From Patescibacteria group bacterium (GTDB lineage: Bacteria > Patescibacteriota > Minisyncoccia > 2-02-FULL-40-12): a DNA stretch of 64,000 nt. Both the position numbers and the translations under genes were made by a program. Under the pieces are notes generated by a model. That model was not told the DNA's origin. It saw nothing but the letters and a program-made list of their open reading frames with translations, and searched no databases. Shown here in pieces: positions 2,313-31,382 of this stretch (the first letter of the stretch is position 1; each line of letters opens with the position of its first letter). Location of the stretch: assembly GCA_038062015.1 (NCBI GenBank), contig JBBTXZ010000003.1:7857-71856 (forward strand), read 5' to 3'.

Positions 2313-2390
2313 GGCACAGTCGATTTCTTCTCTTGAGACACTTCTTGGAAATGGCGCGCTACTTTCTATAATTCTTTACGCCCTCTGATT
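2313..2390 (+). repeat. Half copy (copy 5) of the stop-codon-adjacent structured element family. Begins 20 nt after the rplU stop, in sense orientation.
   Basis: GGCACAGTCGATTTCTTCTCTTGAGACACTTCTTGGAAATGGCGCGC is a near-exact reverse complement of the right arm of copy 1 (3408-3454). Confidence 0.65.
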
Positions 2391-2435
2391 TTAAATACCT
2401 TAGGAAACCCTTGAAAAATGTGGGTTTTTGAGGGA

Positions 2436-2464
2436 TTGACAAATAGTTTATTAGGGTGTATAAT
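2436..2464 (+). promoter_or_regulatory. Sigma70-like promoter for the GC-rich ORF at 2619
   Basis: TTGACA, 17-nt spacer, TATAAT (perfect consensus hexamers). Confidence 0.5.
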
Positions 2465-2618
2465 TAAGATATAATTAAACGGCACCTTAATATATGATAT
2501 CTGCGGTAGCAAAGAGTTCTTAGGCATATTCAATTAAAACTAAAAGTCAGGATTCTTTGTTGTCGCAGATATGGAAAGAGTCAAAAAGATTGGGCATTTT
2601 GCGCAAAAGGAGGGAGTG

Positions 2619-3116
2619 ATGAAGAGAGAAACCTTGTATTTGCTAGCGGCCGTTTTCTTGGCAGCAAGTGTTGGTGCAGGTGTTGGTTTTCTATATCCTT
2701 TGATTCTTCCACCTCCGTCTCAGTCTGTAGAAGAGACATACGCTTCAACGGTCGAGTTCGAGGGTCTAAAGAGAGACGTTTCTAATCTCTACGATCGGAT
2801 CAGCGAGCTTGAAAAGGAAATTGAAACAAATCCTGATTTCTTTATCCGGCGGATGGATCGGGATCTGGATTTGCTCGAAAAAGGGCAAAATCCACACGGC
2901 AGTTTCTCGGACTACTTTGTTCCGAATGCCATGGCGGCCTTGAAAGCCGGAGCTGCGAAGAAAGAAGTGTTAACGAGGCTTGAACGAGTAGTTGCTCTGG
3001 CCGAGAAAAAGGTCTACTTGAGTAGTTACGTCGGTCAGCTTGTCCGGGAGGGCGGGATCGAAGCCGTACGCTCTTACATAGAGGGTGCGACGGGCTTACG
3101 TCTTTCCCGTCCATAG
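2619..3116 (+). CDS. Hypothetical membrane-anchored coiled-coil protein in a GC-rich island. The ORF track starts at 2571; the SD-supported start is the Met at 2619.
   Basis: AAGGAGG sits 5 nt before the ATG at 2619. N-terminal TM helix. About 48% GC against a background of about 35%. Followed by a strong intrinsic terminator. Confidence 0.55.
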   Translation: MKRETLYLLAAVFLAASVGAGVGFLYPLILPPPSQSVEETYASTVEFEGLKRDVSNLYDRISELEKEIETNPDFFIRRMDRDLDLLEKGQNPHGSFSDYFVPNAMAALKAGAAKKEVLTRLERVVALAEKKVYLSSYVGQLVREGGIEAVRSYIEGATGLRLSRP

Positions 3117-3133
3117 TTATGTTCATTTTCGTC

Positions 3134-3190
3134 CCCGCAGGAGCAATTCATCGGTTATACCGGAAACGCTCCTGCGGGGCGTTTTTTTGT
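3134..3190 (+). terminator. Rho-independent terminator
   Basis: CCCCGCAGGAGC ... GCTCCTGCGGGG 12-bp stem followed by TTTTTTTGTTT. Confidence 0.75.
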
Positions 3191-3241
3191 TTAGTATGAC
3201 GAGACCTTGCCGAGATGGAATCTTCTAATAAAGTATTGGGA

Positions 3242-3454
3242 GGGCATGACTGATTTCTGAACCTGAGGGTGTCTTGAGAAATGGCCGCTATCTTTACGCA
3301 GTCCCCATGCGAGTTCCCACAGGGACGAGCTGGGATGTTCTGACAAATTGCCGTTAACAAATCTATGGTGGAGGTATCCTGATTTGTCGGCAATTCAAGT
3401 AAAGTGGCGTGCCATTTCCAAGAAGTGTCTCAAGAGAAGAAATCAGTCATGCCC
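3242..3454 (-). repeat. Structured intergenic element, copy 1 (ends 3 nt before the dnaB stop codon, sense to dnaB)
   Basis: Closing stem GGGCATGACTGATTTCT / AGAAATCAGTCATGCCC. Conserved core TTTCTGAAC ... AATTGCCG-hairpin-CGGCAATT ... CTCAAGAGAAGAAA shared with copies 2 and 3. Confidence 0.75.
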
Positions 3455-3457
3455 GAG

Positions 3458-4804
3458 CTATATATTCTTCGCCAAATTCTTAAAACTCACTTCTTCTTCA
3501 TCGAAATAAAGCTCAACCGCACCGGTGGGTCCGTTGCGGTGTTTGGCAATAATAATTTCGGCGATATTTTTTCTGTCCGAATCATGGTGCCTTACTTTAT
3601 CTTCCCGATGGATGAACATTACTAAATCAGCGGCCTGTTCAATCCCGCCTGATTCTCTTAAATCCGAAAGCCGAGGTCTCTGGTCTGGCCTTGCTTCAAC
3701 TGCCCGGGATAACTGCGAAACGGCGATAATCGGGATATTCAGCTCCCGGGCCAAAGCTTTCAGGGAATTAGCCACGTCCGTCACCTGCTGGACATAACCT
3801 TCAATGTCGCTTCTGGGCTGGACTAACTGTAAGTAATCAATCACTAAAAGCCCGAGTTCGTTTTTGGCTTTTAACCGTCTGGCCATGGCTCTGATCTGTA
3901 AAACCGTGGGCGAAGGCGCGTCATCTATAAAGATAGAAACTTTTGATAAGCTATCCAAAGCCAGAGAAATTTTCGAAAAATCATTGAAGTCGCCCGAGCT
4001 GGTCAAGTGGCCAGTTCTTAATTTCCAAAGGCTCACCCCGGCTTCGGCTGATAAAATTCTATCTATCACCTGGTCTTTGGACATTTCCAGACTAAATAGT
4101 CCAACGCCGGCATTTTCTTTTTTGGCGATATTCCTAACCATATCCAAAGCCAAAGATGTTTTTCCAAGCGAGGGCCTTGCTCCAAGAATGATCAAATCCG
4201 AACGTTGAAGCCCAGCCAGTATATTATCCAAATCCACAAAGCCGGTTGAAAGGCCTCGCAAGGCGCCGTCCCCCCGATGAAGCCTTTCCAGCCGTTCAAA
4301 AGCTTCGTGGAGCTCCTCTTTCAAAGCTGTAAATTCCTGAGTTAAGGAGCGTTGGGAAACAGAGAAAAGATTTTGTTCAGCCTGATCCAGAATTTTTTCA
4401 ATACTTTCGTCTTCCTGATGGCCGAGGGCCGTAATTTTGTGGGCCGAATCTATCAAGTCCCGCAAAATTTTCTTGCGCCGGATTATTTTTCCATAATTTA
4501 ATATGTGGGCTGAAGTCGGCGTGGCGCTTAGAAGAGAAGTAAGGTAAGACGCTCCGCCGGCATTTTCAAGCTCGTCGCCTTCTTCAAGCTTGTTTGAAAC
4601 AGTCAAAATATCTATAGGTTCGTTTTTTTCCAAAAGGCTGACCATTGCTTTGAAAATCAGGTGGTTTTGGCGGGCGTAAAAATCATCGGGCCTTAAAATA
4701 TCAATTATTTTTTCAATTGAGCCTTTATCAATTAAAATAGAGCCCAAAACAGATTTTTCGGCTTCAAGGTTTTGGGGCGGAAGCTTGTCGGGAAGATTAG
4801 CCAT
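3458..4804 (-). CDS. dnaB: Replicative DNA helicase DnaB
   Basis: N-terminal LPPQNLEAEKSVLGSIL. Walker A GARPSLGKTSLAL. RecA-like C-terminal domain. Confidence 0.9.
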   Translation of the reverse strand: MANLPDKLPPQNLEAEKSVLGSILIDKGSIEKIIDILRPDDFYARQNHLIFKAMVSLLEKNEPIDILTVSNKLEEGDELENAGGASYLTSLLSATPTSAHILNYGKIIRRKKILRDLIDSAHKITALGHQEDESIEKILDQAEQNLFSVSQRSLTQEFTALKEELHEAFERLERLHRGDGALRGLSTGFVDLDNILAGLQRSDLIILGARPSLGKTSLALDMVRNIAKKENAGVGLFSLEMSKDQVIDRILSAEAGVSLWKLRTGHLTSSGDFNDFSKISLALDSLSKVSIFIDDAPSPTVLQIRAMARRLKAKNELGLLVIDYLQLVQPRSDIEGYVQQVTDVANSLKALARELNIPIIAVSQLSRAVEARPDQRPRLSDLRESGGIEQAADLVMFIHREDKVRHHDSDRKNIAEIIIAKHRNGPTGAVELYFDEEEVSFKNLAKNI

Positions 4805-4876
4805 GGAGGTATGATAAATGTCTAATTTTAATGAGACAAGGGATAATCTGTGGAGATAACTTATCTTTTTTTACTT

Positions 4877-6283
4877 TTAGCTTTTACTTTTTAACTTTAC
4901 TAGTGGCCCGTAAGGAGTGTCTTCAATGGAATATCCCAAGGCCTGGATCTCATCCCTGGCTTTGTCGGCTTCAAGCCAGGCCTTTTCTTTTCTTAATGTT
5001 TCACGTTTTTCAACCAATTGTAAAATATCGGTAATTTTTAGCCATTCGTCTGGTAAAACCCCTAGAATATCTCTTCCTATCCAATTTAATAATTTTTTGA
5101 TCTCAACCGCCTGTTTTTTTGATATCAAGCCGCTGGATAGAAGTTTGTTTATTTCTTTGATAAAATTGAATAATTCCGAAAGCGCTAGGGGAGTATTAAA
5201 ATCGTTGTCTAATGCACTCTCTATTTTCTCTTTATATTCTTCTATTAATTCTTGCACTCTAGTTATTTCTGTTTCTTTCGGTAAGTCCAGATTTCCAGGA
5301 GTAAGCTTCCAATCAAGCTCGAAAATCCTTTGCACTGCCGCCTCTGATTGTTTCAATAAATTTTCTCTATACTCAACAGGAGAACGGTAGTGAGCATTTA
5401 TAGCCATAAAACGTAGCGATTCGGAAGAATACTTCTTCAGAATGTTTTGGATAGTTATAGTATTTTTGAGTGATTTAGACATTTTTTGGCCATTTATTGT
5501 CACAAGTCCGGAATGAAGCCAGTATTTCACGAAAGGTTTTTTACCAGAGGCGGCTTCTTGTTGAGTAATTTCTGCTTCGTGATGAGGAAATATTAAATCC
5601 TGGCCGCCGCCATGAATATCGTACTGCTGACCCAAATATTTTTCAGTTATAGCTGTATCTTCAATATGCCAGCCAGGTCGGCCAAAACCAAAAGGGCTAC
5701 TCCAACCAGGTTTTCCGGACTCTGATATTCGCCATAAGACAAAGTCGCCTTTATTTCTTTTACTGACCGATTCATCAACTCTGGAAACTGCGTCCTCGGC
5801 CTGCTGGACAGTCCTCTTAGATAATTTTCCGTAGCCTTCAAATTTTGAAATGTCAAAATAAATACCTTCCTCAATTTTGTAAGCATATCCTTTATCAAGC
5901 AGGGTTTGGATTTGTTTAATAATTTCTTTTATGTGGTCAGTGGCTCTGGCTATTTTATTTATACTGTTGATGTTAAGATTTTTAATATCCTCTAAAAAAC
6001 TTGTTTCATAAAGTTTAGCTATATCTTCCCAAGGTTTATTTTCCTGTTTCGCACGGTCAATTATTCTATCATCGATGTCCGTTATATTAAGTACAAAATT
6101 AACTTTATATCCTTTATAGCGTAGGTATTTTACAAAAACATCAAATATAACATAGGTTCTAATATGACCAATGTGTGAAAAATCATATACAGTAGGACCG
6201 CAGACAAAAAGATTAACCTTTTTATTTTTAAATGGCTCAAAAAGCTCTTTTTTAGCCGAAAGTGTATTATAAATTTGAATCAT
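4877..6283 (-). CDS. cysS: Cysteinyl-tRNA synthetase
   Basis: CGPTVYDFSHIGH (HIGH motif) and KMSKS motif. Confidence 0.9.
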   Translation of the reverse strand: MIQIYNTLSAKKELFEPFKNKKVNLFVCGPTVYDFSHIGHIRTYVIFDVFVKYLRYKGYKVNFVLNITDIDDRIIDRAKQENKPWEDIAKLYETSFLEDIKNLNINSINKIARATDHIKEIIKQIQTLLDKGYAYKIEEGIYFDISKFEGYGKLSKRTVQQAEDAVSRVDESVSKRNKGDFVLWRISESGKPGWSSPFGFGRPGWHIEDTAITEKYLGQQYDIHGGGQDLIFPHHEAEITQQEAASGKKPFVKYWLHSGLVTINGQKMSKSLKNTITIQNILKKYSSESLRFMAINAHYRSPVEYRENLLKQSEAAVQRIFELDWKLTPGNLDLPKETEITRVQELIEEYKEKIESALDNDFNTPLALSELFNFIKEINKLLSSGLISKKQAVEIKKLLNWIGRDILGVLPDEWLKITDILQLVEKRETLRKEKAWLEADKARDEIQALGYSIEDTPYGPLVKLKSKS

Positions 6284-6339
6284 AAATAGACTAGTCTAAT
6301 TTTATTTTAACAATATTTATTATATATATATTAAAGGAA

Positions 6340-6363
6340 GAGGTCTCCGCCCTCGGAGACCTC
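6340..6363 (-). terminator. Hairpin/terminator downstream of the GC-rich gene at 6389
   Basis: GAGGTCTCCG-CCCT-CGGAGACCTC perfect 10-bp stem. A/T-rich tract follows on the minus strand. Confidence 0.45.
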
Positions 6364-6388
6364 AAGTGGAATTTGGCTGATCTGGAAG

Positions 6389-6928
6389 TTAGTCAGCGCA
6401 GTAACAACATGACTGGTTGTTCGTTGTTGTCTTCCAGAACAAGCTGTCGGGCGGACCGAAGTACTGCGTGTACCTCGCTATGGTGCCGCTGAGATAATCA
6501 GGCATCAGTGCTATGTTTTCTTCTTCGCTGACAGTGGGTCCGTGATGGATGAACTGTCCGCTCGCGACTTCTGAACAGAACTTGTGGTAGTTTCGTGTGT
6601 TCAGCACGGCCATGTGCCAGAAATCGTCGACATCCTTGGACATCGGAAGGCACTGATCTGGATGCATGATGCGAAGGAACAAGTATTTCTTGAACTCTTG
6701 ATCCATCGCTACAGCTACATCTGGTTCGTAGCCCAGTCGGTTGATGACCAGAAGTCTTTCTCTGGAGAAGTCGAATTCACACACTCTTTTGAAGAGAATG
6801 CGAGCCGCCTCTGGCGCACCTGGCCTCAATTTAGAAAACAACGAGTTACTCCTCGAGTCGACGGGTAACTCCCTTACAATGCAGCTACTGTCATGACTCA
6901 ACCTCCTAAAGAACTGGTTTTGCAACAA
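6389..6928 (-). CDS. Hypothetical protein, GC-rich island, DUF1399/GRDP-like motif. TTG start.
   Basis: Pattern KKYLFL...DVDDFWHMAVL...Y..FC......G.FIHH resembles the DUF1399 core (W-H..L..Y..C..HH/HDD). About 50% GC. Confidence 0.4.
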   Translation of the reverse strand: MLQNQFFRRLSHDSSCIVRELPVDSRSNSLFSKLRPGAPEAARILFKRVCEFDFSRERLLVINRLGYEPDVAVAMDQEFKKYLFLRIMHPDQCLPMSKDVDDFWHMAVLNTRNYHKFCSEVASGQFIHHGPTVSEEENIALMPDYLSGTIARYTQYFGPPDSLFWKTTTNNQSCCYCAD

Positions 6929-9203: not shown

Positions 9204-9221
9204 AAAAATAGAACTTAGAAT

Positions 9222-10091
9222 TTAGTAATTAGAATTTAGAACAGAACCGATAAAGTCTTTACGGCCATTCAAAAAATCCTTTATTTCCATTGGTTTTTTA
9301 CCTTCAAGTTGAACGGTTTTCAATAACACAGCGCTATGAAAGCCACACTTTATTGCGGTTTGTCTATTTTCAACCAAAAAAACCTGACCATTTTTAAAAT
9401 TACCATTTTTTTTAGAAATCGGCAATACTTCAAGGATTTTCAATATCTTATTATTCCAAGCAGTCCAGGTTCCGGGTTCAGGATTTAAGGCGCGTATTTG
9501 CCTGTCTATTCCATCGGCAGATTTTGACCAGTCAATTTTTCCGTCTTGCCAAGAAAATTTCTTAGTGTAGATCGCTTCTTGATGATTTTGTTCAGTCGGT
9601 TTTACTTCTCCGTTAATCCATTTCGGCAAAATCTCAATTAAAAGCTTAGTTCCTAATTCTGCGAGTTTTTTTTCCAGTTCTTTATATTTTTCATTTTTCA
9701 TTTTTAATTTTTCATTTGCTATTGTCGGCCCGTGGTCAACTTTTTCATCCATTAAAATTATGGTTACGCCGGTTTCTTTTTCGTCGTTTAAAATCGCTGA
9801 TTGTATTGGGGAGGCCCCGCGGTATTTTGGCAGAAGCGAGGGATGGATATTCAGAAAACCATATTTGGGAATTTCCAAGTATTCTTTGGGAATTATTCTC
9901 CCATAAGCGGCGACAACGCAAATATCCGGGTTTAATTTTTTAAAATCTTCAATGCCTTTTTCTAAATCCCAGAGAATAGGGGAGCAGCCTCGTAAAGGGG
10001 CGTGGCCCCCACGAGGCTTTACGCCCCCTTTTTTCAAAGCCTCAAAAACCGGCTTTGAGAAAGATGATGTTCCGAAAAAAAATAATTTCAT
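9222..10091 (-). CDS. fmt: Methionyl-tRNA formyltransferase
   Basis: FFGTSSFS N-terminus. HPSLLPKYRGASPIQSAIL catalytic motif. C-terminal domain present. Confidence 0.8.
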   Translation of the reverse strand: MKLFFFGTSSFSKPVFEALKKGGVKPRGGHAPLRGCSPILWDLEKGIEDFKKLNPDICVVAAYGRIIPKEYLEIPKYGFLNIHPSLLPKYRGASPIQSAILNDEKETGVTIILMDEKVDHGPTIANEKLKMKNEKYKELEKKLAELGTKLLIEILPKWINGEVKPTEQNHQEAIYTKKFSWQDGKIDWSKSADGIDRQIRALNPEPGTWTAWNNKILKILEVLPISKKNGNFKNGQVFLVENRQTAIKCGFHSAVLLKTVQLEGKKPMEIKDFLNGRKDFIGSVLNSNY

Positions 10092-10210: not shown

Positions 10211-10420
10211 ATGAATATTAACAGTCCGGGAGACGCTAATGAAAAGAATCCAGTACATTGTTATGGGTGTGATGAAATTGTAATTGCGGCTAGAGAACAC
10301 CACAAAGAGAAACACTTCAGAACCACACACAAGTGTCCGAAGTGCGGTTATAGAGGAAGTCTCTTGACCATAAACGGAATACCCCAATTGAGGCATCCTG
10401 GCGAGATACCTGGAGCATAG
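10211..10420 (+). CDS. Small zinc-ribbon protein (CxxC...CxxC), GC-rich island
   Basis: HCYGCDE ... CPKCGY. Strong promoter and SD. Confidence 0.5.
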   Translation: MNINSPGDANEKNPVHCYGCDEIVIAAREHHKEKHFRTTHKCPKCGYRGSLLTINGIPQLRHPGEIPGA

Positions 10421-10452
10421 TCGTAAAATTGTTCTTTTAGGAGGAGATAGCC

Positions 10453-10740
10453 ATGACAGAACAGACAGCGAAGCAACGGCGTCCTTTTCACGAATCCATC
10501 GTCGATGCAATCCGTCGTGCCTCATACAGCGATATGAGGTGTCTAGGAAAACTCATCCAGGAGACCAAGATCCCAAAGGGTCACGACGCAATAATCGCCG
10601 CCTGGAATGATCGAAATGAGGAACTGTCTCGCGAGATGCGCGAGGCCGGTGATGTGTATGGCGATCTTTTCGAACAGAAACAGGAAGCTGAAGAAAAGGA
10701 AAGGGCGAAGAAACAGCAGAATGAAGTCGCCACCACATAA
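10453..10740 (+). CDS. Hypothetical small acidic protein, GC-rich island
   Basis: AGGAGG SD 6 nt upstream. Followed by a terminator. Confidence 0.5.
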   Translation: MTEQTAKQRRPFHESIVDAIRRASYSDMRCLGKLIQETKIPKGHDAIIAAWNDRNEELSREMREAGDVYGDLFEQKQEAEEKERAKKQQNEVATT

Positions 10741-10773: not shown

Positions 10774-10809
10774 GGCGCCCGACCTACTGGTCCGGCGCCT
10801 TTTTCTTTC
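10774..10809 (+). terminator. Rho-independent terminator
   Basis: GGCGCCCGACC-TACT-GGTCCGGCGCC stem followed by TTTTTCTTT. Confidence 0.65.
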
Positions 10810-10862
10810 GGGTTTCGCTGGCGAGTTCTGACGAGGCGAAATCTTCTAATGATTTAGGTTGT

Positions 10863-11065
10863 GCGGGGCATGCCCGTTTTCTGAACTACAAGGGAGCAGG
10901 AACAAATAACCGAAAGAGGGTGAATAATTTGCCGGTTACAACATAGGGTAGGGGATTCCCTATTTGTCGGCAAATTTTAATGAGGTCAATTTCTTAATTG
11001 CGAATGGTACTCTCTGAGGGTTATTTGTCTGCGACGCTTGAGAGAAGAAAACGGGCATGCCCCGC
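10863..11065 (-). repeat. Structured intergenic element, copy 2 (ends 2 nt before the def stop codon)
   Basis: Closing stem GCGGGGCATGCCCGTTTTCT / AGAAAACGGGCATGCCCCGC. Shared motifs TTTCTGAAC, AATTTGCCG...CGGCAAATT (covarying with copy 1 AATTGCCG/CGGCAATT), CTTGAGAGAAGAAA. Extended left homology TGACGAG...AATCTTCTAATGA from 10829. Confidence 0.75.
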
Positions 11066-11066
11066 G

Positions 11067-14599: not shown

Positions 14600-15547
14600 T
14601 TATCCGTTTTTAATTCCGTGAAACTTACGATGGATCTCTCGAAGTCGCGGTTTGGTAATATGAGTATATATCTGAGTAGTGACTATACTTTTATGGCCCA
14701 AAAATTCTTGGACAGTTCTTAAATCAACTCCTTTCATTAATAAATCCGTTGCAAAACTGTGACGCAGTGTATGAACTGTAGTGATTATCGGCAGGCCGGC
14801 TAAAATCGCGCATCCCTTGACCGTTCTTTCAATGCTTTTAATGCTCAGCTGGCTGCCCGGAGATTTACCCCTATAGTTTATAAATAAGGCCTTATTATTG
14901 TCTTTTCTTGTTTCAAGGTACTTTCTTAGCCAATTAATTGCCCTTTCCGATAAATAAACCGTTCGTGGCCGGTTGCCTTTGCCGATAATTGATATCTCTA
15001 AATCTTCAGTCGTGTTTTTAATTTTTATTTGCTCGCGATTCAAACTTGCTAATTCAGCGACTCTTAAACCGGTGGAGAAGAGGATTTCCAATATAGACCT
15101 GTCTCTTAATCCAATGACTCTGGAGGTGTCCGGAACGCTGAATAGTTTTTCAAGCTGTTCTAAGTTTAAAAAATGTAGAATTTTTTCTCCTTTTTCTTTT
15201 GGCAGTTTTATTTTTTCGGGGGGCAGAGAAGTGATGTCTTTTTCAGCGAAATAGGTCAGTAAAGATCTTAAAGCGATTAGATAGTAGTTCTGAGTCGTTT
15301 TTTTCAAAGGCCTGCCGTCTCTGGATATGTGATGCCGTGAAAGGTAAAGCTTATATTGCCAAATATGATCAGGGGAGAGATCAGCTGGTTTTACATTATC
15401 TAATTTATTTTTTTTAAGCCAATTTAAAAAAATTTTTAAAAATCTGGCATAGTTCTCCTGTGATTTGCTGGATAATCCTTTTTCTATTTCAAGCCAGTCC
15501 AAAAAATCTGTTAGGTGCTGGGGGAGTGGTTTTTGATTTATATTCAT
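14600..15547 (-). CDS. xerC: Tyrosine recombinase XerC/XerD family
   Basis: C-terminal HTLRHSFATDLLMKGVDLRTVQEFLGHKSIVTTQIYTH with the catalytic R..H..R..Y. Confidence 0.85.
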   Translation of the reverse strand: MNINQKPLPQHLTDFLDWLEIEKGLSSKSQENYARFLKIFLNWLKKNKLDNVKPADLSPDHIWQYKLYLSRHHISRDGRPLKKTTQNYYLIALRSLLTYFAEKDITSLPPEKIKLPKEKGEKILHFLNLEQLEKLFSVPDTSRVIGLRDRSILEILFSTGLRVAELASLNREQIKIKNTTEDLEISIIGKGNRPRTVYLSERAINWLRKYLETRKDNNKALFINYRGKSPGSQLSIKSIERTVKGCAILAGLPIITTVHTLRHSFATDLLMKGVDLRTVQEFLGHKSIVTTQIYTHITKPRLREIHRKFHGIKNG

Positions 15548-17792: not shown

Positions 17793-18026
17793 ATGGCTGA
17801 CCTCAAGTTTCCAAATTTAGACAAAACAAAAAAAACCACGCTGTATATTCAGGCCAATATCGACCTAAATATTGAAATAATAGCCAACTTTGGGAGAAGG
17901 CCAAAAAAAGATATCATAGAGGAGGCTCTGATTTGGTATCTGAAGGAAAAAATAGGTATTCCTGATCCAACTCAACCGCCAACTCTTTCTTGGGCACCAA
18001 AATCTCCACAAGCCATCAAAGCGTAA
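17793..18026 (+). CDS. Small hypothetical protein (possible ribbon-helix-helix fold)
   Basis: 77-aa ORF converging on the structured element. Weak RHH-like pattern only. Confidence 0.3.
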   Translation: MADLKFPNLDKTKKTTLYIQANIDLNIEIIANFGRRPKKDIIEEALIWYLKEKIGIPDPTQPPTLSWAPKSPQAIKA

Positions 18027-18100
18027 GCAATGGTGGCTTCGTTGTTTTTAGCGAACTATAGCCCGTTTGGCGATGCCATATATTAAAAATTTGTAAAAAG

Positions 18101-18273
18101 CGCGAGGCATATGTCTCTCGGGAAGTTCTGGAGACCGAGTAGCAAGGTAAGTCAAGATTGTTTGAACCCCGAGCTTGTCGAGGGGAAGTCTTGACTTTAC
18201 GAGGTCGTAAGTACAGCGAGCAAAACTCGCTGGGTTTTGCGAGCGGTTCCCGAAGACATATGCCGAGAGCAGC
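18101..18273 (-). repeat. Structured inverted-repeat element, copy 4 (diverged). Ends 3 nt before the ctpA stop codon.
   Basis: Outer stem GAGGCATATGTCTCTCGGGAA / TTCCCGAAGACATATGCCGAG. Nested 9-bp hairpin AAGTCAAGA/TCTTGACTT. Shares the 5' motif GCTCTCGGCAyAkTC with copy 5 after the stop codon. Confidence 0.55.
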
Positions 18274-18276
18274 TTT

Positions 18277-19506
18277 TTATAAATTTTTAATCACTTCAAT
18301 CGCCTTTTCCAACTGCGGATCCAGGTCACTTTTGATGTCTTCTTCGGTTCTCTCAACCTTAATGTCCGGCTCGATCCCTTCATCAGAAATTGACCGGCCT
18401 TTTGGCGTCAACCACTTTGCCACTGTAACCTTTAAAGCCGTTTTAAATCTTAATTCTTCAATCTGCTGAACCGAACCTTTGCCAAAAGTCTTTTCCCCTA
18501 TTAATTTAACCCCTTTATTATCGTGTAAAGCGCCAGCCACAATTTCCGATGCCGAAGCTGAACCTTTATTTATCAATATCACGACTTTCACATCCTTCAA
18601 AAAGCCATTTGGTTTAGCTTTCAACTCATCTTTTTGGCCGATGCCCCGCTGAGCGGGGCCGTTGCCGAAATCCTCAATCACCACCACTTGGCCCGGCTCC
18701 AGGAAATAGCTTGAAATATCAATAGCTAAATCAAGAAGCCCGCCCGGATTGTTCCTTAAATCCAAAATCAATTTTTTGGCGGCGCCCTGTTTTTTTAATT
18801 CTTTAAGCGCTTGGTCAAACTCATTTTTAGCTATCTGATTAAAGCTGAAAAGCTGGATATGGCCTATGTCAGGCTCTATTTTTAACCATTTGACCGTCGG
18901 GATTTTTATCCTGTCTCTGGTTAGTTCAAATTCTTTAGTTTCTTCTTGGCTGTCTTTTTTTCTAGAAATAGTTAAAATAACTTTAGTTCCCCGTCGCCCC
19001 CTTATTTTCGAAACTGCTTCTTCTAAAGTGATTCCGGCGGTTGAATCGCTGTCAATTTTTAAAATTTTATCGCCGGCAATTATTCCGGCCCGGTCAGCCG
19101 GCGTATCCTTTAAAGGCGCAATAACTGTCAATACATCTTCCCTCATTCCAATTTCAATTCCTATTCCGGCAAATTCCCCTTTTATGTCTTCCTGCAGTCT
19201 CTTGGATTCTTTAGCTTCTAAAAATACGGTAAAAGGATCGCCGACGCTTTTTACCATTCCCTCAATTGCTCCAAAAATCATTTCTTGAGTGTTTAAATCT
19301 GAACGGCCGACGTATCTTTCGTGGATTAAATTCCAAGCATCCCAAAATAAACTAAAATCAACCGATTCGGGCTGGCCGAGATCTCTATTGATCAACTCTC
19401 TCAACCCGCCGCCAAAAGGCTCCCGGCTTTTTTGAAACTCAATCCCGCCGAAAAAACCGGCTACCAGAGAAATAATTATGATTGTAACGAGAGTTTTTCT
19501 GTTCAT
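18277..19506 (-). CDS. ctpA: Carboxyl-terminal processing protease (S41)
   Basis: PDZ domain and S41 catalytic region (GSASASEI..., K dyad). N-terminal TM anchor. Confidence 0.8.
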   Translation of the reverse strand: MNRKTLVTIIIISLVAGFFGGIEFQKSREPFGGGLRELINRDLGQPESVDFSLFWDAWNLIHERYVGRSDLNTQEMIFGAIEGMVKSVGDPFTVFLEAKESKRLQEDIKGEFAGIGIEIGMREDVLTVIAPLKDTPADRAGIIAGDKILKIDSDSTAGITLEEAVSKIRGRRGTKVILTISRKKDSQEETKEFELTRDRIKIPTVKWLKIEPDIGHIQLFSFNQIAKNEFDQALKELKKQGAAKKLILDLRNNPGGLLDLAIDISSYFLEPGQVVVIEDFGNGPAQRGIGQKDELKAKPNGFLKDVKVVILINKGSASASEIVAGALHDNKGVKLIGEKTFGKGSVQQIEELRFKTALKVTVAKWLTPKGRSISDEGIEPDIKVERTEEDIKSDLDPQLEKAIEVIKNL

Positions 19507-22792: not shown

Positions 22793-23404
22793 TCAAAATT
22801 TTTTGAGCTTTTTTCTTAGATCAACTATTCCACTACCAGTTTTAACCCAATTACCTTTTTCGTCTTTCTTTATACCTTCCCAAGACATCGCCCTGCCTTT
22901 ACCATCGGGATAATTAACATCTTCCTGGCCCCAGATCCATTTATAGGCTTTCAATATAACTTCGGGTTCTTCACCATTTATATCTTTCCATTTAACATCT
23001 CTGAGAACGTCATCCGGTTCCTTTCCATTATAGACTTTTTCCAAAGCGTTTATAATTTCTATTGTTCCTTTAGGATCTTTATGGCTCTTTTCTTCTAAAT
23101 CTTCAAATATATTTTTATGAGAAATGAGCCATAATGTTTTATCAGTAGGATTAAATATCCAAACCATAAAATCTTCTCGTTTTATGGTGCCAAAAGTAAA
23201 TTTACCGCCCGGTTTTGTTATTACTATTTTCCTCCCATCTTTTAATGATTCGACTTCGTATCCCCTATAAGCGATACTCTCCAACTCTTTTCTAAATCTG
23301 TCTTTAGGAGCATTCTTAATTTTAAGATCGGTGAGATTAATTTCGTGAGCATAAATATTTATTTTTGCTTTTCTTTTTGTATTTACTTTGTCAACTTTAC
23401 TCAT
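22793..23404 (-). CDS. Hypothetical protein. Candidate cognate restriction endonuclease, overlapping the methyltransferase stop by 4 nt.
   Basis: Operon position directly downstream of a beta-class MTase. Possible PD...ExK-like NPTD(x14)EDLEEK. No recognisable family. Confidence 0.3.
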   Translation of the reverse strand: MSKVDKVNTKRKAKINIYAHEINLTDLKIKNAPKDRFRKELESIAYRGYEVESLKDGRKIVITKPGGKFTFGTIKREDFMVWIFNPTDKTLWLISHKNIFEDLEEKSHKDPKGTIEIINALEKVYNGKEPDDVLRDVKWKDINGEEPEVILKAYKWIWGQEDVNYPDGKGRAMSWEGIKKDEKGNWVKTGSGIVDLRKKLKKF

Positions 23405-24246
23405 ATCGAAGAAAATACAGAATTAGATATAGATGCCTTAAGACGTCTAACAGATAAATCTAAATATTCTTTTTCAGCATCAATGCCTATGAATTTTCTC
23501 CCGTTTTTTATCGCGGCCAATCCAGTTGTTGAACTGCCGGTAAAAGGGTCTAATACTATATCGCTCTTATTAGTGCTGGCTAAAATGATTCTTTCTAATA
23601 AAGCTACTGGTTTTTGAGTCGGGTGCTTGCCGAATTTTTTTTCTTCTTTTTGAGGCGTGATAAATGACCAAATTGTTCTCATTTGTTTATCAGAAACTTT
23701 AATTAAATCTTCCGGCCATTTTCCGGTTCTCATTAAGTTATAATTAAAAGTATGTTTGGCTTTCTTGTCTTTTCTTGCCCAAAGTAATGTTTCGTGGCTT
23801 GCAGTAAAATAACGGCCACTAAGATTCGGTGATGCATTAGGTTTAAACCAGGCAATATCATTGAGTATATGATAGCCGAGTGACTGCAAAGCATAACCGC
23901 ACTGATAAATAGAGTGGTAGGTGCCGCTAATCCAAATAGTTCCGCGAGGTTTTAATACTCTTTTACACTCGCTAATCCAATTTATATGAAACTGGAGATC
24001 TTCTTCAAAGCCATTGCTTTTATCCCAGTCGCCTTTATTCACACTCACTCTTTTACCGGCATGAACGGTAAATCCTCCATTTGATAAGTTATAAGGAGGG
24101 TCGGCAAAAATCATATCTATAGAGTTTTCCGGTAGTTGTTGGAGTAGTTTAAGAGAATCACCGTGATACAAAACAAAATTATCAGCTGTAAAATAAGGCT
24201 TTTCTTTTACCTTGGATAAAATTTTACCGTTAGTCCCGTCCGCCAT
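23401..24246 (-). CDS. DNA methyltransferase, beta-class (N6-adenine or N4-cytosine)
   Basis: Motif IV DPPY (FADPPYNL) lies N-terminal to motif I VLDPFTGSSTTG. Confidence 0.85.
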   Translation of the reverse strand: MADGTNGKILSKVKEKPYFTADNFVLYHGDSLKLLQQLPENSIDMIFADPPYNLSNGGFTVHAGKRVSVNKGDWDKSNGFEEDLQFHINWISECKRVLKPRGTIWISGTYHSIYQCGYALQSLGYHILNDIAWFKPNASPNLSGRYFTASHETLLWARKDKKAKHTFNYNLMRTGKWPEDLIKVSDKQMRTIWSFITPQKEEKKFGKHPTQKPVALLERIILASTNKSDIVLDPFTGSSTTGLAAIKNGRKFIGIDAEKEYLDLSVRRLKASISNSVFSSI

Positions 24247-24831: not shown

Positions 24832-24835
24832 CGGG

Positions 24836-25174: not shown

Positions 25175-25179
25175 GTATC

Positions 25180-25202: not shown

Positions 25203-25213
25203 TCTTAAATCTA

Positions 25214-25561: not shown

Positions 25562-25579
25562 AATTAAACTTTGAAACTT

Positions 25580-26365: not shown

Positions 26366-26367
26366 AT

Positions 26368-27006: not shown

Positions 27007-27011
27007 GATTT

Positions 27012-27038
27012 AGTTGATTAGTTTTAAACTAATCAACT
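27012..27038. promoter_or_regulatory. Perfect 13-bp palindrome between rpsK and rpsD
   Basis: AGTTGATTAGTTT-T-AAACTAATCAACT. Confidence 0.4.
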
Positions 27039-27053
27039 ACTTGATTAACTAAT

Positions 27054-27497
27054 TTATACTCTTCTCGGTTTCGGCGGCTTAACTCCGCCGTGCGGAATAG
27101 CCGTTCTATCAATTATTCCTCTGATATCTATGCCGGCCGAAGAAAGCCCCCTGATTGCCGCTTCACGTCCGGGGCCGACCCCTTTGACATAAACCTCAGC
27201 CTCGGTAAAGCCAAATCTTTTAGCTTTTTCTGCAGCCGCCTTACCGACCAAAGTGGCGGCAAAAGGCGTTGATTTTCTTGTGCCTTTAAATCCGAGATTG
27301 CCGGCCGAAGCCCAAGCGATAACATCTCCTTTTCCATCGGTTACGGCAACAATCGTATTATTAAAACTCGAATTTATAAAAACATTGCCTTTGATTACTT
27401 GTTTTTTAGCGGTTTTTTTTGAAACCTTAACTTCAATCCCTTTGTCAACGGCCAATGTTTCGTCGCTTGATTTTGTAACTATTTTTTTCTTACCCAT
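27054..27497 (-). CDS. rpsK: 30S ribosomal protein S11
   Basis: ASAGNLGFKGTRKSTPFAA...GPGREAAIRGL. Confidence 0.9.
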   Translation of the reverse strand: MGKKKIVTKSSDETLAVDKGIEVKVSKKTAKKQVIKGNVFINSSFNNTIVAVTDGKGDVIAWASAGNLGFKGTRKSTPFAATLVGKAAAEKAKRFGFTEAEVYVKGVGPGREAAIRGLSSAGIDIRGIIDRTAIPHGGVKPPKPRRV

Positions 27498-27510
27498 AAA
27501 ATTTCTGAGT

Positions 27511-27897
27511 TTAAGTCGGGCTTGCCGGCGGTCTTCTTCCGGAACCCATGGTCTTTCTAATATTGCCGCGCAAAGTTCTTGAATTAGTCTTAGTCCGGCC
27601 GCTGATCGGTAATTTTTTGACGTGCCTTATCCCCCGCCAAGCCCCTATTTCTTTTAATCTTTTGATGTTTCCCAAAATTTCCCTTCTTAATTCTCCTTCA
27701 ACCCGATAATTTTTTTCTATAATGCTTTGAATTTTATTTATCTCATCATTGGTCAATTCTTTTGCCCGTTTATCCGGATTCACACCGGCGGTTTTTAAAA
27801 TAAGCTTAGTTAAAGTCGGCCCTATTCCATAGATGTAGGTTAAAGCAATTTCAAGTCTTTTGTTGTCTGGGATGTTAACCCCCGAAATACGCGGCAT
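27511..27897 (-). CDS. rpsM: 30S ribosomal protein S13. The ORF track extends to 27966, but the S13 consensus begins at the internal MPRISGVNIP.
   Basis: MPRISGVNIPDNKRLEIALTYIYGIG. Confidence 0.8.
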   Translation of the reverse strand: MPRISGVNIPDNKRLEIALTYIYGIGPTLTKLILKTAGVNPDKRAKELTNDEINKIQSIIEKNYRVEGELRREILGNIKRLKEIGAWRGIRHVKKLPISGRTKTNSRTLRGNIRKTMGSGRRPPASPT

Positions 27898-28042
27898 GTT
27901 ACTTTTGTCTCTGTTTATGTTTTGAATTCCTGCAAATACAATATAAACGCCCTTTTCTCCGGACAATTTTACAGTTCCGACAGATTTTCTTAATCGAAGA
28001 TTGAACTCTCAAAAAAATATCGATATATCGAAATATCTTATT

Positions 28043-28255
28043 TTATAATCTCTTTACTATTCTCCCTCTTTCGCCGTCCGGGCTTAATTCAACTAAAACC
28101 TTGTCGCCGATCATTACCCGGATATAAAAAAGCCTCATCTTTCCTGAAATATGGGCTAAAATTAATTTGCCGTCTGGAAGCTCAACCCTGAAGTAAGCGT
28201 TAGGCAGGCTTTCCTTGATTAAGCCCTGTTTTATATTTTTAGCTTTATTATTCAA
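28043..28255 (-). CDS. infA: Translation initiation factor IF-1
   Basis: 70-aa S1-like OB fold. [29 protein letters not shown]. Confidence 0.85.
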
Positions 28256-28317
28256 TAGCGCTTAGTAATAATAATATGATTAAAATAAAAAAGCAAGTCA
28301 AAGCAAATCTTTATTCC

Positions 28318-29814
28318 TTATTCAATTATTATTGCTATATTTATTCTATTAGCGTCTTTCGGAATCTTCCTTAGCCAAAAAGGAGGAAAAATCCGGGCTG
28401 ATTCTATTTCGTTCAAACCGCTGAAATAAGAATCAGCTTCACTTATCCTTTTACCGGCAATATCCGAAATTATCTTCTTTTTGTCTATATTTTGGATAGT
28501 CTGGCCGGAAGAAACCAGTTTAAAAGATAATTCCCTTTTTTCTTTGTTCAATTTCGACTGATCATAATTTATTTTAATACCGCTTGCCACTAATAAATTC
28601 TGGGAATTTTTAACATACTGGGAAATAAAATCAACAATATCGCTCTCTTTAAAAACTACCAGGCTCGCTTTAATTTTAAAATCAACCCTAAATTCTTTAG
28701 TTAGATCGCCGGCGTTATTGGAATCACCGGTTTTTTCTATTTCCATGTTCAAAACTTCATCCAAAATTTTAAAATTACCAAGTAAAGCAAGCTCTGCCTT
28801 TATTTGGCTGACTCCTTCTTCTTTTATAATTTCTTCGGCTTTTTCTAAATCCTCTTTGCTTACGAAACTGGACTGGCCGACAAACCCTCCGGAAAGTTTC
28901 TCAAATGATTTTGCGTAAAAACCCTGATATTTTGGATTACCCAGAAACCCAGGTATCCTGAAATCGGAAGGCTCAATATTGTATTCTTCGCCAGCCCGAT
29001 CAGCGACGATTTCAACCTCTATCTCGCCGGGCTTAAACTCACTGCCGATTATCTTACCGGGCACAGTTACGGCCTTTGGGATTCTAAAAGTCAGCCCTTC
29101 GGCTGTTTGAAGCCTTGTCGTGGCCACTAAAATCTGGGGCGAAGCGCTGAAATTATTGTAAATGAAGGCCCTGCCTCTGGCTTTCTGAAAAACATCTTTC
29201 TCGGCGCTTGAAGCAAATGTTTTAGAAATTAATTTTTCAACTTCAATCCATTGGCCCGGCACCATTCCGTAGATTTCATCGTTTTTAGTGATATCAGTTG
29301 AAACGACCACTGGTAAATTAATCGAAAAATCGACTTTACGGGGAATTATTTTTATATTCACTTCGTTTAAAGAAGAAAGGGCGATGAAAATAAATAAACC
29401 GATGGCAGAACCGAGAAGAGCCAGGATGAATTTTTTAGAATCTTTTTGCTTTAGCCTTGCCAGACGGGGCGGGACGCTTAGCGTCCCAAAGGGCCCCGCT
29501 GAACGGGCCACCGGTGTTTTTTCTGAAAACTCTGAATAGAAAGAAAGCAGGTCTTTGTCTTTCTTGGTGTTATTACCTTTAGCGGCAGTCCCGCTCGGCG
29601 GGGCGGCGGCTTTAGCATTTTGCCCGGAAGAAATTATTGAAACTTCTTTTTTTAACTTGTCGAAATGGGCTTTCAACTTTTCCAATTTGTTCTTGTTTTT
29701 AAAGACCGGGTTTGATTTTGGGACAACTAAAATTAAGCTGTCAGATCCGGATTCTTCGACTGCCTCCAAAATGTCTTCGAAATTGTCGCCCGAAGCGATG
29801 TTAATGATTTTCAT
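28318..29814 (-). CDS. Hypothetical single-pass membrane protein inserted upstream of infA in the ribosomal cluster
   Basis: Cytoplasmic N-domain, TM helix LALLGSAIGLFIFIAL, large extracytoplasmic domain. No family recognised. Confidence 0.4.
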   Translation of the reverse strand: MKIINIASGDNFEDILEAVEESGSDSLILVVPKSNPVFKNKNKLEKLKAHFDKLKKEVSIISSGQNAKAAAPPSGTAAKGNNTKKDKDLLSFYSEFSEKTPVARSAGPFGTLSVPPRLARLKQKDSKKFILALLGSAIGLFIFIALSSLNEVNIKIIPRKVDFSINLPVVVSTDITKNDEIYGMVPGQWIEVEKLISKTFASSAEKDVFQKARGRAFIYNNFSASPQILVATTRLQTAEGLTFRIPKAVTVPGKIIGSEFKPGEIEVEIVADRAGEEYNIEPSDFRIPGFLGNPKYQGFYAKSFEKLSGGFVGQSSFVSKEDLEKAEEIIKEEGVSQIKAELALLGNFKILDEVLNMEIEKTGDSNNAGDLTKEFRVDFKIKASLVVFKESDIVDFISQYVKNSQNLLVASGIKINYDQSKLNKEKRELSFKLVSSGQTIQNIDKKKIISDIAGKRISEADSYFSGLNEIESARIFPPFWLRKIPKDANRINIAIIIE

Positions 29815-31100
29815 AGTTTTATAAATTTTTTATCTTGACTTACTCTTGAGACTTTTTTGTGTTTTTCTTCCTCTTTTTTAACTTCTTCCATATTTATTTC
29901 CATTCCTTTTTCCTTAGCAATGTCTTGTACAATCTCAACCCCCACACCAATGCTTGACTGAGTATTAAAAACATAGGCGCCAGGAATAAATTTATACCCT
30001 TTATTTTTAAATTCTTCGACATCTTTTTCAATTTTTGGTATTTCTCTGCTAAGTAATTTTTCAAATTTTTGAAACTCTTCATTAAATACTTCCAATACTT
30101 TTTCCTCATTTTTCTCCAGATCGGGGTAATACTCTTTATAAATGTTTATTATTGTTTTAACAGAACGTTGTAAAAAATCATCGTGCAAATTCAGCTTTTT
30201 TGAATGCCTCATTATTTTTCTGATTAATTTTCTTAAAATATATCCTCGTCCAAGATTCGATGGCATCACTCCGTCAGAAATTACAAAAACGCCTGCTTTC
30301 AGATGATCAGAGATTATTCTTTCAAATTTTTGATTAGATTGATAATCGTATAAATTTTTGTTTCTTAATTCAGTTATTATCGGCGAGAACAAATCAGTTT
30401 CAAAAACTGATTTGCTGCCTTGTAAAACCATAACCAATCTTTCCAATCCCATTCCCGTATCAACCCCCTTTCTTTGAAGGGGAATTAAATGTTTTTCTTT
30501 ATTGCAGTAATATTCATTAAAAACAATATTCCAAACTTCAATCCCATCGATATGAATTTCGGTGGTCGGCCCACAAGGACCTTCCTCGCCGGTTGGACCC
30601 CAAAAATTATCTTTTATTTCGCCGAAAAATATTTTTTCCTCGGGTATGCCCAGTGATTTCCAGATTTCCAACGACTCTTGGTCAATTGAAATATCATTTT
30701 TATCGTCGCCTTTGAAAACCGAAATTTTTATTCTTCTTAGAGGCACGCCAAAATCGTTGACTATCAAATCATAGCTGTGCTTTATCGCTTCTTTTTTAAA
30801 ATATGAATCCTTGGCTTCCGGAAACTTGAAAGAAAAATTGCCGAGCATTTCAAAAAATGTCAGGTGGCTTTCATCACCGACTTCATCAATGTCCACGGTT
30901 CGCAGACATTTTTGAATAGAAGCTATTTTGTTTCCATAAGGCGAGTCGTTATCCAGATAATATTTCTTAAATTGCTGCATTCCGGCAGTAGTAAAAAGAA
31001 CCGACTTATCTTCTGGAACCAATAAAGAAGAAGGTATTATTTTATGTCCCCGTTTCTCAAAAAAATCCAAGAATTTTTTGCGGATCTCTTGATGAGTCAT
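29811..31100 (-). CDS. alaS: Alanyl-tRNA synthetase, short form (catalytic plus tRNA-recognition domains only, 429 aa)
   Basis: FLDFFEKRGHKIIPSSLLVPEDKSVLFTTAGMQQFK and FFEMLGNFSF class II motifs. SDHLKAGVFVISDGVMPSNLGRGYILRKLIRK. No editing or C-Ala domain. Confidence 0.75.
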   Translation of the reverse strand: MTHQEIRKKFLDFFEKRGHKIIPSSLLVPEDKSVLFTTAGMQQFKKYYLDNDSPYGNKIASIQKCLRTVDIDEVGDESHLTFFEMLGNFSFKFPEAKDSYFKKEAIKHSYDLIVNDFGVPLRRIKISVFKGDDKNDISIDQESLEIWKSLGIPEEKIFFGEIKDNFWGPTGEEGPCGPTTEIHIDGIEVWNIVFNEYYCNKEKHLIPLQRKGVDTGMGLERLVMVLQGSKSVFETDLFSPIITELRNKNLYDYQSNQKFERIISDHLKAGVFVISDGVMPSNLGRGYILRKLIRKIMRHSKKLNLHDDFLQRSVKTIINIYKEYYPDLEKNEEKVLEVFNEEFQKFEKLLSREIPKIEKDVEEFKNKGYKFIPGAYVFNTQSSIGVGVEIVQDIAKEKGMEINMEEVKKEEEKHKKVSRVSQDKKFIKL

Positions 31101-31190
31101 TATTAATTGAAATAGAAACCTTCCCTCGGTTTCTCTATATTATATAACAAATGGAAAGCTACTTTCGCGTTTTTCGCTTTAAAATAATAC

Positions 31191-31382
31191 AGAAAGCCGT
31201 GAGCCTGTATCAATTTCTGAGTCGGGCAGTGTTCTTGAGAAATGGCCGCTACCTTTATGAAGAATTGCCGAATGACAATTGCTGGTGGAGGATCCAGAAT
31301 TGTCGGCAATTCGAATAAAGTGGCGCGCCATTTCCAAGAAGGGCTCCCAAACGAAGAAATTGATATAGGCGATAAGGCTTTC
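31191..31382 (-). repeat. Structured intergenic element, copy 3 (ends 3 nt before the mnmA stop codon). Deletion variant lacking about 43 nt of the copy-1 core.
   Basis: Closing stems GAAAGCC/GGCTTTC and GCCTGTATCAATTTCT/AGAAATTGATATAGGC. Near-identical core to copy 1 (TCTTGAGAAATGGCCGCTA..., TGGTGGAGG, TTGTCGGCAATTC.A.TAAAGTGGCG.GCCATTTCCAAGAAG). Confidence 0.75.

Follow-up and report, generated by a model that had tools for sequence, protein, structure and literature searches.

The stretch of DNA analysed here (the window; 64,000 nt of contig JBBTXZ010000003.1, assembly GCA_038062015.1) comes from a groundwater Patescibacteria contig of Hainich well H51, also deposited as GCA_964359985.1, and carries hairpin-forming repeats at the 3′ ends of housekeeping genes. 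An earlier note, made from the sequence alone, placed five copies behind rplU, dnaB, def, ctpA and mnmA, each starting 2–20 nt past the stop and oriented like its gene. All five were found at about the coordinates proposed, and Pfam bears out the gene names (ribosomal protein L21, DnaB, peptide deformylase, S41 peptidase and the tRNA methyltransferase MnmA, respectively). With element boundaries set from the stems and from relatives (that is, related Patescibacteria contigs compared with the window and given L numbers, such as L008 and L085), the adjacency and shared orientation held, and the 5′ ends proved to lie 0–3 nt from the stop codon instead. Inverted arms of ~35 nt are common to four core families (A, B, C and D), and the window holds the following features of this kind:

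2297–2365, plus strand: A-type, 5′ half only (the 5′ arm GCGAAAAGTTGCTCTCGGCACAGTCG and the first part of the A core), 3 nt past the rplU stop TAG; 44 nt are 95% complementary to 3401–3444; nhmmer match to the half copy at E 7e-13
3186–3241, minus strand: module E (ATTAGAAGATTCC...CTCGTCA) on the 3′ side of the dnaB A element; a modest similarity, compared by eye, that recurs beside the def copy and in relatives
3242–3457, minus strand: A-type, full, with an internal insertion of ~45 nt; 5′ end on the dnaB stop TAG (gap 0); −100 kcal/mol, z −10.6
10806–10859, minus strand: copy of module E (ATTAGAAGATTTCGCCTCGTCAGAACTCGCCAGCGAA) on the 3′ side of the def B element, by sequence comparison
10860–11066, minus strand: B-type, full; 5′ end on the def stop TAG (gap 0); −90.3 kcal/mol, z −11.9; 85–92% identity to copies in two other metagenome-assembled genomes (MAGs)
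18093–18280, minus strand: C-type, full; the opening bases of the stem contain the ctpA stop TAA, and the element is followed by a T-rich tail; −68.4 kcal/mol, z −6.6; 219 bits
31190–31385, minus strand: A-type, full, without the ~45-nt insertion; 5′ end on the mnmA stop TAA, with TA on both sides; −77.9 kcal/mol, z −9.9
43443–43513, minus strand: degraded A remnant filling the greA–aspS spacer (GGAATCCTCCAC loop piece and AGAAATTGGCTATACCC 3′ arm), directly after a TAG stop
49946–49990, minus strand: D-type, 5′ 45 nt only (TAG followed by CAAAAATCTTCTCGGGTACAGCCATTTCGAAAACGTTCGGCCTCG), directly after the frr stop TAG

Each of the four full copies folds into one long rod, and none of 200 dinucleotide shuffles folds as well. 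The window copies are mutually ~84–86% alike, bar one 44-nt stretch at 95%, and the mnmA copy shares 91% identity with a copy in another species (L044). The outermost terminus of the dnaB copy (GCGAAAAGC) is lost, and the greA–aspS site, which holds only a remnant in the window, is occupied in L008 by a nested O+B copy and an inverted B copy. No further copies were found in the ~20 kb of contig beyond each window end. Just past the 3′ end of the ctpA element, positions 18056–18077 (CTATAGCCCGTTTGGCGATGCC) match the unusual 3′ arm of a D-type copy after rplU in L085 and may be a further arm fragment.

The arms are the part that all elements share. The 5′ arm consists of (T)AGCGAAAAGC, a conserved internal-loop strand YYCCTC, GG with 8–10 variable nucleotides, and (A)TTTC; the 3′ arm complements it imperfectly, has a loop strand of fewer nucleotides (TCGC) and terminates in GCTTTTCGCT(A). 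Between the arms, A and B share an internal hairpin with the C-rich loop GGAUACCUCCACC, and the cores are otherwise unrelated. The earlier note had described a core common to its copies 1–3; the rplU, dnaB and mnmA copies belong to family A, and the def copy has a different core, B. What the def copy has in common with the two full A copies is limited to the arms, the stem TTTCT/AGAAA and the internal C-rich-loop hairpin; its flanking helices differ, and it lacks TCTTGAGAAATGGCCGC. Nor does the 43-nt difference seen in the note reflect a deletion in the mnmA copy: it is an insertion in the dnaB copy, which is also present in L097:5331–5575 and absent from 11 of the 13 A copies, including that of mnmA. 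Likewise, the ctpA copy, described as a diverged relative of the others, represents a separate and well-conserved core family, C. Family D was found with a covariance model.

Two pattern scans, one of a genome collection (with the internal-hairpin pattern) and one of metagenomes, together brought the number of non-redundant elements to ~40. The former returned 73 stretches, genuine only in three groundwater Patescibacteria MAGs from the same aquifer as the window (H51-bin010_1, H51-bin021_1 and one labelled Saccharibacteria); a match in Peribacteria (L050) was judged to be due to chance. The latter added Hainich contigs and two Joint Genome Institute metagenomes. A covariance model (R1) run against 100 sources matched Patescibacteria loci and no others, with no match in ~65 unrelated control loci; it picks up the other core types through the arms alone. 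Comparison with phages and plasmids (blastn) gave no match, and pattern scans of viral contigs gave none or only chance matches in coding sequence. No Rfam family accounts for the elements: across the whole window, Rfam 15 at the gathering threshold reports just two tRNAs, and in scans with permissive E-values the A and C copies and their relatives gave nothing beyond miRNA-like matches due to chance. Nothing relevant was found in the literature on repeats of the miniature inverted-repeat transposable element (MITE) or repetitive extragenic palindromic (REP) kind in Patescibacteria, that is, the candidate phyla radiation (CPR).

The elements are 176–272 nt long and have no coding capacity; a reading of the cores as coding sequence was rejected, given that indels break the frame and substitutions follow pairing (that is, are compensatory) rather than codons. 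Beyond the full copies there are derived forms: nested elements in which an A or B core sits inside a C-type shell (O+A and O+B), deletion derivatives, solo arms, and a chimera (L087) whose two arms mismatch. Where two elements occupy one spacer they lie tail to tail, with their 5′ arms toward the flanking genes, and short extra modules recur beside elements. The elements thus form a mosaic overall, like bacterial interspersed mosaic elements (BIMEs).

The structure is real, and families A and C show strong covariation. The earlier note had argued for compensatory changes from the outermost stem pairs, which diverge between copies while remaining complementary, and from the internal-stem variation AATTGCCG/AATTTGCCG; the pairs it quoted are correct, and its argument is upheld statistically, with 22 pairs changed on both sides in each family. 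For family C (15 sequences, hand-built model of 56 pairs), 95.8% of cells are paired and the covariation score is 0.229, against a shuffle mean of 0.093 and a maximum of 0.073 when partners are slid; for family A (13 sequences, RNAalifold model of 53 pairs), 94.3% of cells are paired and the score is 0.281, against 0.127 and 0.088. In neither family did any of 500 shuffles reach the observed score. Entire helices have been replaced (GCAAAAC/GUUUUGC by UCCGCC/GGCGGA and by GCCGAC/GUCGGC), one hairpin is free to vary in length and sequence, and the outermost stem is copy-specific yet complementary, in places over 13–16 bp that include the stop codon.

Covariation as such cannot separate selection on RNA from selection on DNA, because compensatory changes are reported to be common also in the DNA hairpins of REPINs (REP doublets forming hairpins; PMC3116915). 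The balance of G.U and A.C pairs is likewise uninformative on the strand, because the two families contradict each other: G.U is the commoner in A, and in C the reverse holds (A.C in 18 cells of the sense strand versus G.U in 8). Antisense folds are ~12 kcal/mol lower in 38 of 39 copies; as a sign of antisense RNA this was rejected, since base composition explains it and shuffles differ equally (z −8.4 sense, −8.6 antisense). Sense-strand GC skew is −0.17 for the five window copies (A, B and C cores) versus +0.12 for coding sense, and per-copy base counts give C > G in all four core types, D included. The sense strand is thus C-rich and G-poor, and unpaired sense positions are therefore C-rich, with CCUC motifs.

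Placement is tied to the stop codon. Among the 38 elements with an identifiable 5′ neighbour, relatives included, 30 follow that gene in sense, as the earlier note had it for the window, with the 5′ end −7 to +32 nt from the stop and mostly within 0–8 nt (binomial p 5e-4); gaps on the 3′ side are far larger, typically tens to hundreds of nucleotides. The remaining eight turn their 5′ end toward a gene start and are mostly the second member of a tail-to-tail pair. Stops adjacent to elements are TAG in 17 cases, TAA in 12 and TGA in 2, versus a background of 55, 97 and 61, respectively, so that TAG is enriched (Fisher p 2e-4) and TGA depleted (p 2e-3); in the window, elements sit on 5 of 11 TAG genes, 2 of 36 TAA genes and none of 13 TGA genes. 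In ~11 cases the TAG of the gene coincides with the opening three bases of the element's consensus terminus, TAGCGAAAAGC. Terminus and stop codon are mechanistically linked, either through insertion in the TA of a stop that is completed by the first base of the element, or because the element brings the stop. The orientation bias needs a separate cause, because TAG would arise in either orientation, and transcript-level selection is the most economical one. The replication strand was rejected as a cause, given that copies 100–1000 nt apart can have opposite orientations, each in line with its neighbouring gene (as for rplU and dnaB, and in L022). In L104, a single element abuts the stops of both convergent genes, dnaB and rplU.

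Comparison of related loci points to movement. A 272-nt O+B copy occurs with 100% identity at two loci on different contigs of H51-bin010_1 (L008, after greA, and L022, after another gene); the identity runs exactly from CGAAAAGC to GCTTTTCGCT, the flanks are unrelated, and the tetranucleotides on the 5′ side differ (GTAG versus TGAA). Within the def-to-rplU synteny common to four species, the fmt–efp spacer is empty in the window (18 nt) and in L104 (29 nt); in L085 it is 512 nt long and holds a C element and an inverted A element. The L085 junction of the C element reads ACT TAG, then the element from CGAAAAGC to GCTTTTCGC and TAG, then ATTAAG, which fits an insertion at the stop codon that duplicated TA or TAG. 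Copies at non-orthologous loci are 85–92% identical, and the housekeeping DNA of the host species is ~75% identical. These comparisons show that the arm-delimited unit was copied to new sites and is mobile now or was so recently. TA or TAG is present at both ends of the C copy in L085, the O+B copy in L008, the L082 copy, two L097 copies, L070:1980–2177 and the mnmA copy.

We therefore favour, with a probability of roughly 60% for this reading as a whole, a superfamily of small non-autonomous, hairpin-forming mobile DNA elements of a groundwater Patescibacteria clade, which also serve as transcript-end hairpins, either co-opted or tolerated. Common terminal inverted repeats would make the elements MITE-like, and their mosaic, palindromic make-up and long persistence would liken them to REP, BIME and REPIN sequences. 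An enzyme supplied in trans would insert the unit at or just after stop codons, whereupon the terminal (T)AG of the inserted unit would often become the stop codon of the gene, and most surviving copies would be those in sense. Transcription of the gene before such a copy would then end in a rod with a stem of 30–35 bp and the stop codon in its base, followed in solo copies by a U-rich tract. Such a rod may act as a terminator, as a block to 3′ exonucleases or as both, and the stop codon in the stem base could also impede the terminating ribosome. Solo sense copies have 6.4 T in the 12 nt past the stem, against a base frequency of 31%, and paired copies have no such tail; element-bearing gene ends have no other terminator-like hairpin, and a simple terminator scan finds only small sub-hairpins inside the arms. 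The T-rich tails, the element shared by two gene ends in L104 and the lack of another hairpin are the reasons for suggesting a terminator or exonuclease-block role. The earlier note had offered a structural RNA of the 3′ untranslated region (3′UTR) as its alternative; a transcript-level role is plausible on the grounds of orientation bias, T-rich tails and C-rich sense loops, although the orientation rule has exceptions in the second members of tail-to-tail pairs, which face a gene start. That the C-rich sense loops load Rho or pair with Shine–Dalgarno sequences is speculation.

Several observations weigh against this interpretation. The TA/TAG duplication is missing at the L022 twin and on the 3′ side of 8 of the 13 C copies, and a TA duplication is indistinguishable from an extension of the stem because TA is self-complementary. 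Neither the 64-kb window nor its ~20-kb flanks nor ~400 kb of related loci, a coverage of ~10% of any one genome, yielded a DDE or Y1 transposase, and there is no transposase Pfam match in the window or flanks; a search by tblastn with IS200 TnpA and E. coli YafM gave no match below E 0.26, although this is a weak test that covered ~10% of each genome. Nor does any arm pair in the compared loci enclose an ORF, as a cognate autonomous insertion sequence (IS) would, and no multi-copy ORF was found there. The divergence of the window copies implies that there was no very recent burst in this genome. Moreover, the ends of dnaB, rplU, lepA and greA are occupied in several species by differing cores (A, A, C or arm fragments only at dnaB; an A half, C or D at rplU; lepA and greA likewise vary), and the post-dnaB copies of the window and L104 look inherited from a common ancestor. 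Shared occupied ends, together with outer stems that diverge yet remain complementary, fit long residence under selection rather than free transposition, and the identical copies could stem from gene conversion. The terminator role, too, is one that we infer, and the stems are far longer than those of canonical intrinsic terminators. The nesting of copies suggests that existing elements draw in new insertions, and this would account for certain gene ends being hot spots.

Among other explanations, the elements might be primarily functional structured RNAs, that is, cis-acting 3′UTR modules or 3′UTR-derived small RNAs (for example, with anti-Shine–Dalgarno-like CCUCC loops), whose spread was secondary, through duplication or arm recombination and without a transposase. 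The strong covariation would suit such RNAs, as would multi-helix cores with conserved unpaired stretches and variable-length or optional inserted hairpins, which recall riboswitch and ribozyme families; so would the sense bias, the C-rich sense-strand loops of all four cores, the A/B loop GGAUACCUCCACC, which in its sequence resembles the 16S 3′ end, the G.U pairs that family A keeps at fixed positions (for example, columns 41–225, GU in 7 of 13), and the occupation of the same gene ends across species. We nevertheless consider this account unlikely: no Rfam family matches, the structural signal is not strand-specific, a quarter of the copies are antisense and point toward gene starts, and solo arms, nested copies and chimeras resemble the debris of mobile DNA, while four unrelated cores with the termini alone in common are a signature of trans-mobilised elements and the covariation is shared by REPIN hairpins. 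A variant in which the two accounts meet, with the cores as functional RNA modules (for example, anti-Shine–Dalgarno-mimicking or processing ‘punctuation’ RNAs) on a common mobile chassis delivered specifically to stop codons, seems to us unlikely as well. If true, it would give the CPR a mobile, modular 3′-end RNA system in which one insertion supplies a stop codon, a terminator and a regulatory RNA, possibly by an insertion mechanism that has not yet been described.

The mobility could also be conceived more narrowly: the arms would be REP units bearing an xTAG head, and a domesticated Y1 (HUH) transposase, present as a single gene elsewhere in the genome (a REP-associated tyrosine transposase, RAYT), would copy them in the form of single-stranded DNA hairpins. 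The xTAG head, a feature of REPs, is present in most copies; many have GTAG, TTAG or ATAG at their start, next to the stem foot, and the complementary CTA at their end, the symmetric two-arm hairpin with compensatory changes is as described for REPINs (PMC3116915), the tail-to-tail clusters and mosaic linker motifs are BIME-like, and inheritance is apparently long-term and partly vertical. A strict REPIN–RAYT system is still improbable, since the arms, unlike REPs, are not self-palindromic (the GGGGCATGCCCC variant of the def copy excepted), elements of 180–270 nt with large structured cores compare with REPINs of ~100 nt with short spacers, and no element-flanked gene looks RAYT-like, the 181-aa ORF between two copies being membrane-anchored and without a Pfam match; the RAYT or TnpA (Y1) gene that the earlier note proposed to look for gave nothing at E<0.1 in the tblastn search described above, with the limits stated there. 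Highly improbable, finally, is a role as recombination sites or hot spots (attC-like or Xer-like) that receive small accessory genes and do not themselves transpose. Small ORFs without a Pfam match that are absent or different in relatives do adjoin elements (the 181-aa ORF, two beside the def copy and one of 77 aa beside the ctpA copy), as does a RelE/ParE-like pair in L090, the fixed orientation at stop codons is as in attC, and the window encodes a XerC-like recombinase (14600–15547). However, the upstream genes are housekeeping genes on both strands with no cassette array, RYYYAAC/GTTRRRY core sites and an integron integrase are absent, many copies have no accessory gene nearby (mnmA, frr and fmt–efp in L085), and the Xer-like gene looks like an ordinary chromosomal one.

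Two more specific identities were rejected. Palindrome-associated transposable elements (PATEs) of IS200/IS605 lack terminal inverted repeats, have differing subterminal hairpins and insert 3′ of a fixed tetranucleotide without duplication. The present elements have ~35-nt terminal inverted repeats that pair with each other, their single arms are not palindromic, their 5′ tetranucleotide is not fixed, and the weak search above revealed no Y1 transposase; hence, of the suggestion in the earlier note of a REP/BIME-like element or an IS200/IS605-derived MITE, the mobile, mosaic REP/BIME- or MITE-like character stands and the IS200/IS605 or PATE origin does not. Integron attC sites were set aside on the basis of the termini (AGCG.../...CGCT), the genes followed (dnaB, def, rplU, ctpA, mnmA, frr and greA) and the Xer-like character of the sole tyrosine recombinase. 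They resemble the elements as imperfect inverted repeats that stand straight after a stop codon in fixed orientation, with structure more conserved than sequence and possibly variable terminal structure; yet the elements have no R″/R′ core sites, cassette arrays or IntI, their termini are the conserved part, and they follow housekeeping genes.

The elements of the favoured reading belong to a MITE/REP–BIME-like superfamily, and the general phenomenon is already well known in other bacteria. MITE features found are terminal inverted repeats, small size without an ORF, insertion polymorphism and near-identical copies at unrelated sites. With REP, BIME and REPIN sequences of Enterobacteria and Pseudomonas, which are mobilised by RAYT Y1 enzymes, they share intergenic location, palindromic and multi-copy character, alternating orientation, mosaic linkers, the TAG head at the stem foot, the single long hairpin formed by two inverted units and, as is generally known for E. 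coli REPs, a preference for gene 3′ ends. In E. coli, REPs are often found no more than ~15 nt from a stop codon, with an influence on mRNA stability and on the termination of translation, which is reported to be slowed by REPs close to the stop. The Patescibacteria elements differ in being 2–3 times longer, in having at least four unrelated, conserved multi-helix cores, in arms that are not self-palindromic, in their strong orientation to the upstream gene, in host phylum and in that no RAYT was found (by the weak test above). The Correia/NEMIS elements (Neisseria miniature insertion sequences) are likewise hairpin MITEs, 100–155 bp in length, with long terminal inverted repeats and TA at the insertion site, with subtypes that differ by an internal segment and with no cognate transposase identified; they are intergenic and co-transcribed with their neighbours, and it has been proposed that RNase III acts on their RNA stem-loops and mRNA levels are thereby modulated (PMC2229807, PMC2649163). 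There is no sequence similarity to them, and the present elements add several cores, extensive covariation, stop-codon fusion and TAG enrichment, with a TA duplication that is not established. RUP (repeat unit of pneumococcus, from Streptococcus pneumoniae) and MITEs of the IS630/Tc1 type are also non-autonomous, ~100–300 bp in length and without an ORF, with shared terminal inverted repeats and a TA target (PMC2229807); RUP, however, has a parent in IS630-Spn1 with matching repeats, whereas no parent IS was seen here, and no structural conservation or stop-codon rule is known for RUP. Enterobacterial repetitive intergenic consensus sequences (ERIC, also known as intergenic repeat units, IRU) are imperfect palindromes of ~127 bp that are co-transcribed and affect the stability of upstream mRNA in an orientation-dependent manner (PMC2229807), but they form a single family, their placement is not tied to stop codons, and they have no sequence similarity to the present elements.

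The sequence around the elements offers observations of its own. The rplU and dnaB elements are separated by an island of ~900 nt, absent from the orthologous spacer in L085 and L104, in which a perfect sigma-70 consensus promoter (2436–2464; TTGACA, 17 nt, TATAAT) drives the membrane-anchored 181-aa ORF (2571–3116), followed by an intrinsic terminator (3133–3190). Just past the def and ctpA elements, and convergent to these genes, lie ORFs of 69, 95 and 77 aa (10211–10740 and 17793–18026) that match no Pfam family, the 69-aa one being zinc-ribbon-like; the def–fmt spacer of L085 holds a different small ORF, and variable accessory genes seem to gather beside elements. In L090, a diverged second copy of the last 12 lepA codons with TAG stands 85 nt past the real lepA stop, fused to an element arm (1655–1690), and looks like the scar of recombination with foreign DNA; the RelE/ParE-like toxin–antitoxin pair of the same locus (522–975) has an arm-like motif right behind its stop. 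The cysS–dnaB spacer of L103 contains a G+C-rich insert of 400 nt (1530–1920), including a stretch similar to a portion of the C core (GGTGGCTCTCCAGAACTTTCGGC); the insert is missing from the three other genomes with this synteny, where the spacer measures 43–89 nt.

Elsewhere in the window, a G+C-rich, hairpin-rich region of 180 nt (38368–38549, minus strand) with no Rfam match at the gathering threshold precedes a 93-aa ORF with a weak EF-Tu domain-2 match and may be a leader or small RNA. Stop-rich repeats of the type TAGAAT, TTAGTAA or ATAGAAA are stacked before many start codons (9205–9245, 33752–33801, 55168–55284 and the cysS–dnaB spacers of L085 and L103); they look like a lineage-specific spacer or promoter motif and are unrelated to the hairpin elements. 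Tandem repeats of 12 nt (54–209) make up the Pro/Thr-rich, low-complexity start of a 592-aa ORF (27–1805) that has no Pfam match and whose homologues vary in length in relatives. An intein may be encoded in a large ORF (56680–59205, minus strand), for which the annotation of its L112 counterpart gives weak Pfam matches to intein splicing and LAGLIDADG domains. An N6/N4 DNA methyltransferase gene (23401–24246) and the 203-aa ORF without a family match that follows it (22793–23404) probably form a restriction–modification pair, set between genes for ribosomal proteins and cell shape.

Patescibacteria genomes are tiny and densely packed, and repeats are expected to be rare in them; ~10% of the gene ends in these 64 kb nonetheless carry a structured repeat of 200 nt, and dozens more occur in relatives. 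What goes beyond the descriptions of REP, Correia, RUP and ERIC sequences is that the termini are fused to stop codons, among which TAG is enriched, that the orientation is strict, and that one chassis carries four unrelated yet strongly covarying cores. The elements could serve as lineage-specific typing markers, and with them one can ask, in a concrete case, if such repeats are maintained by selection on RNA or on DNA hairpins. Should mobile hairpins indeed have been recruited as transcript ends, they would illustrate how terminators are gained and replaced in streamlined symbionts.

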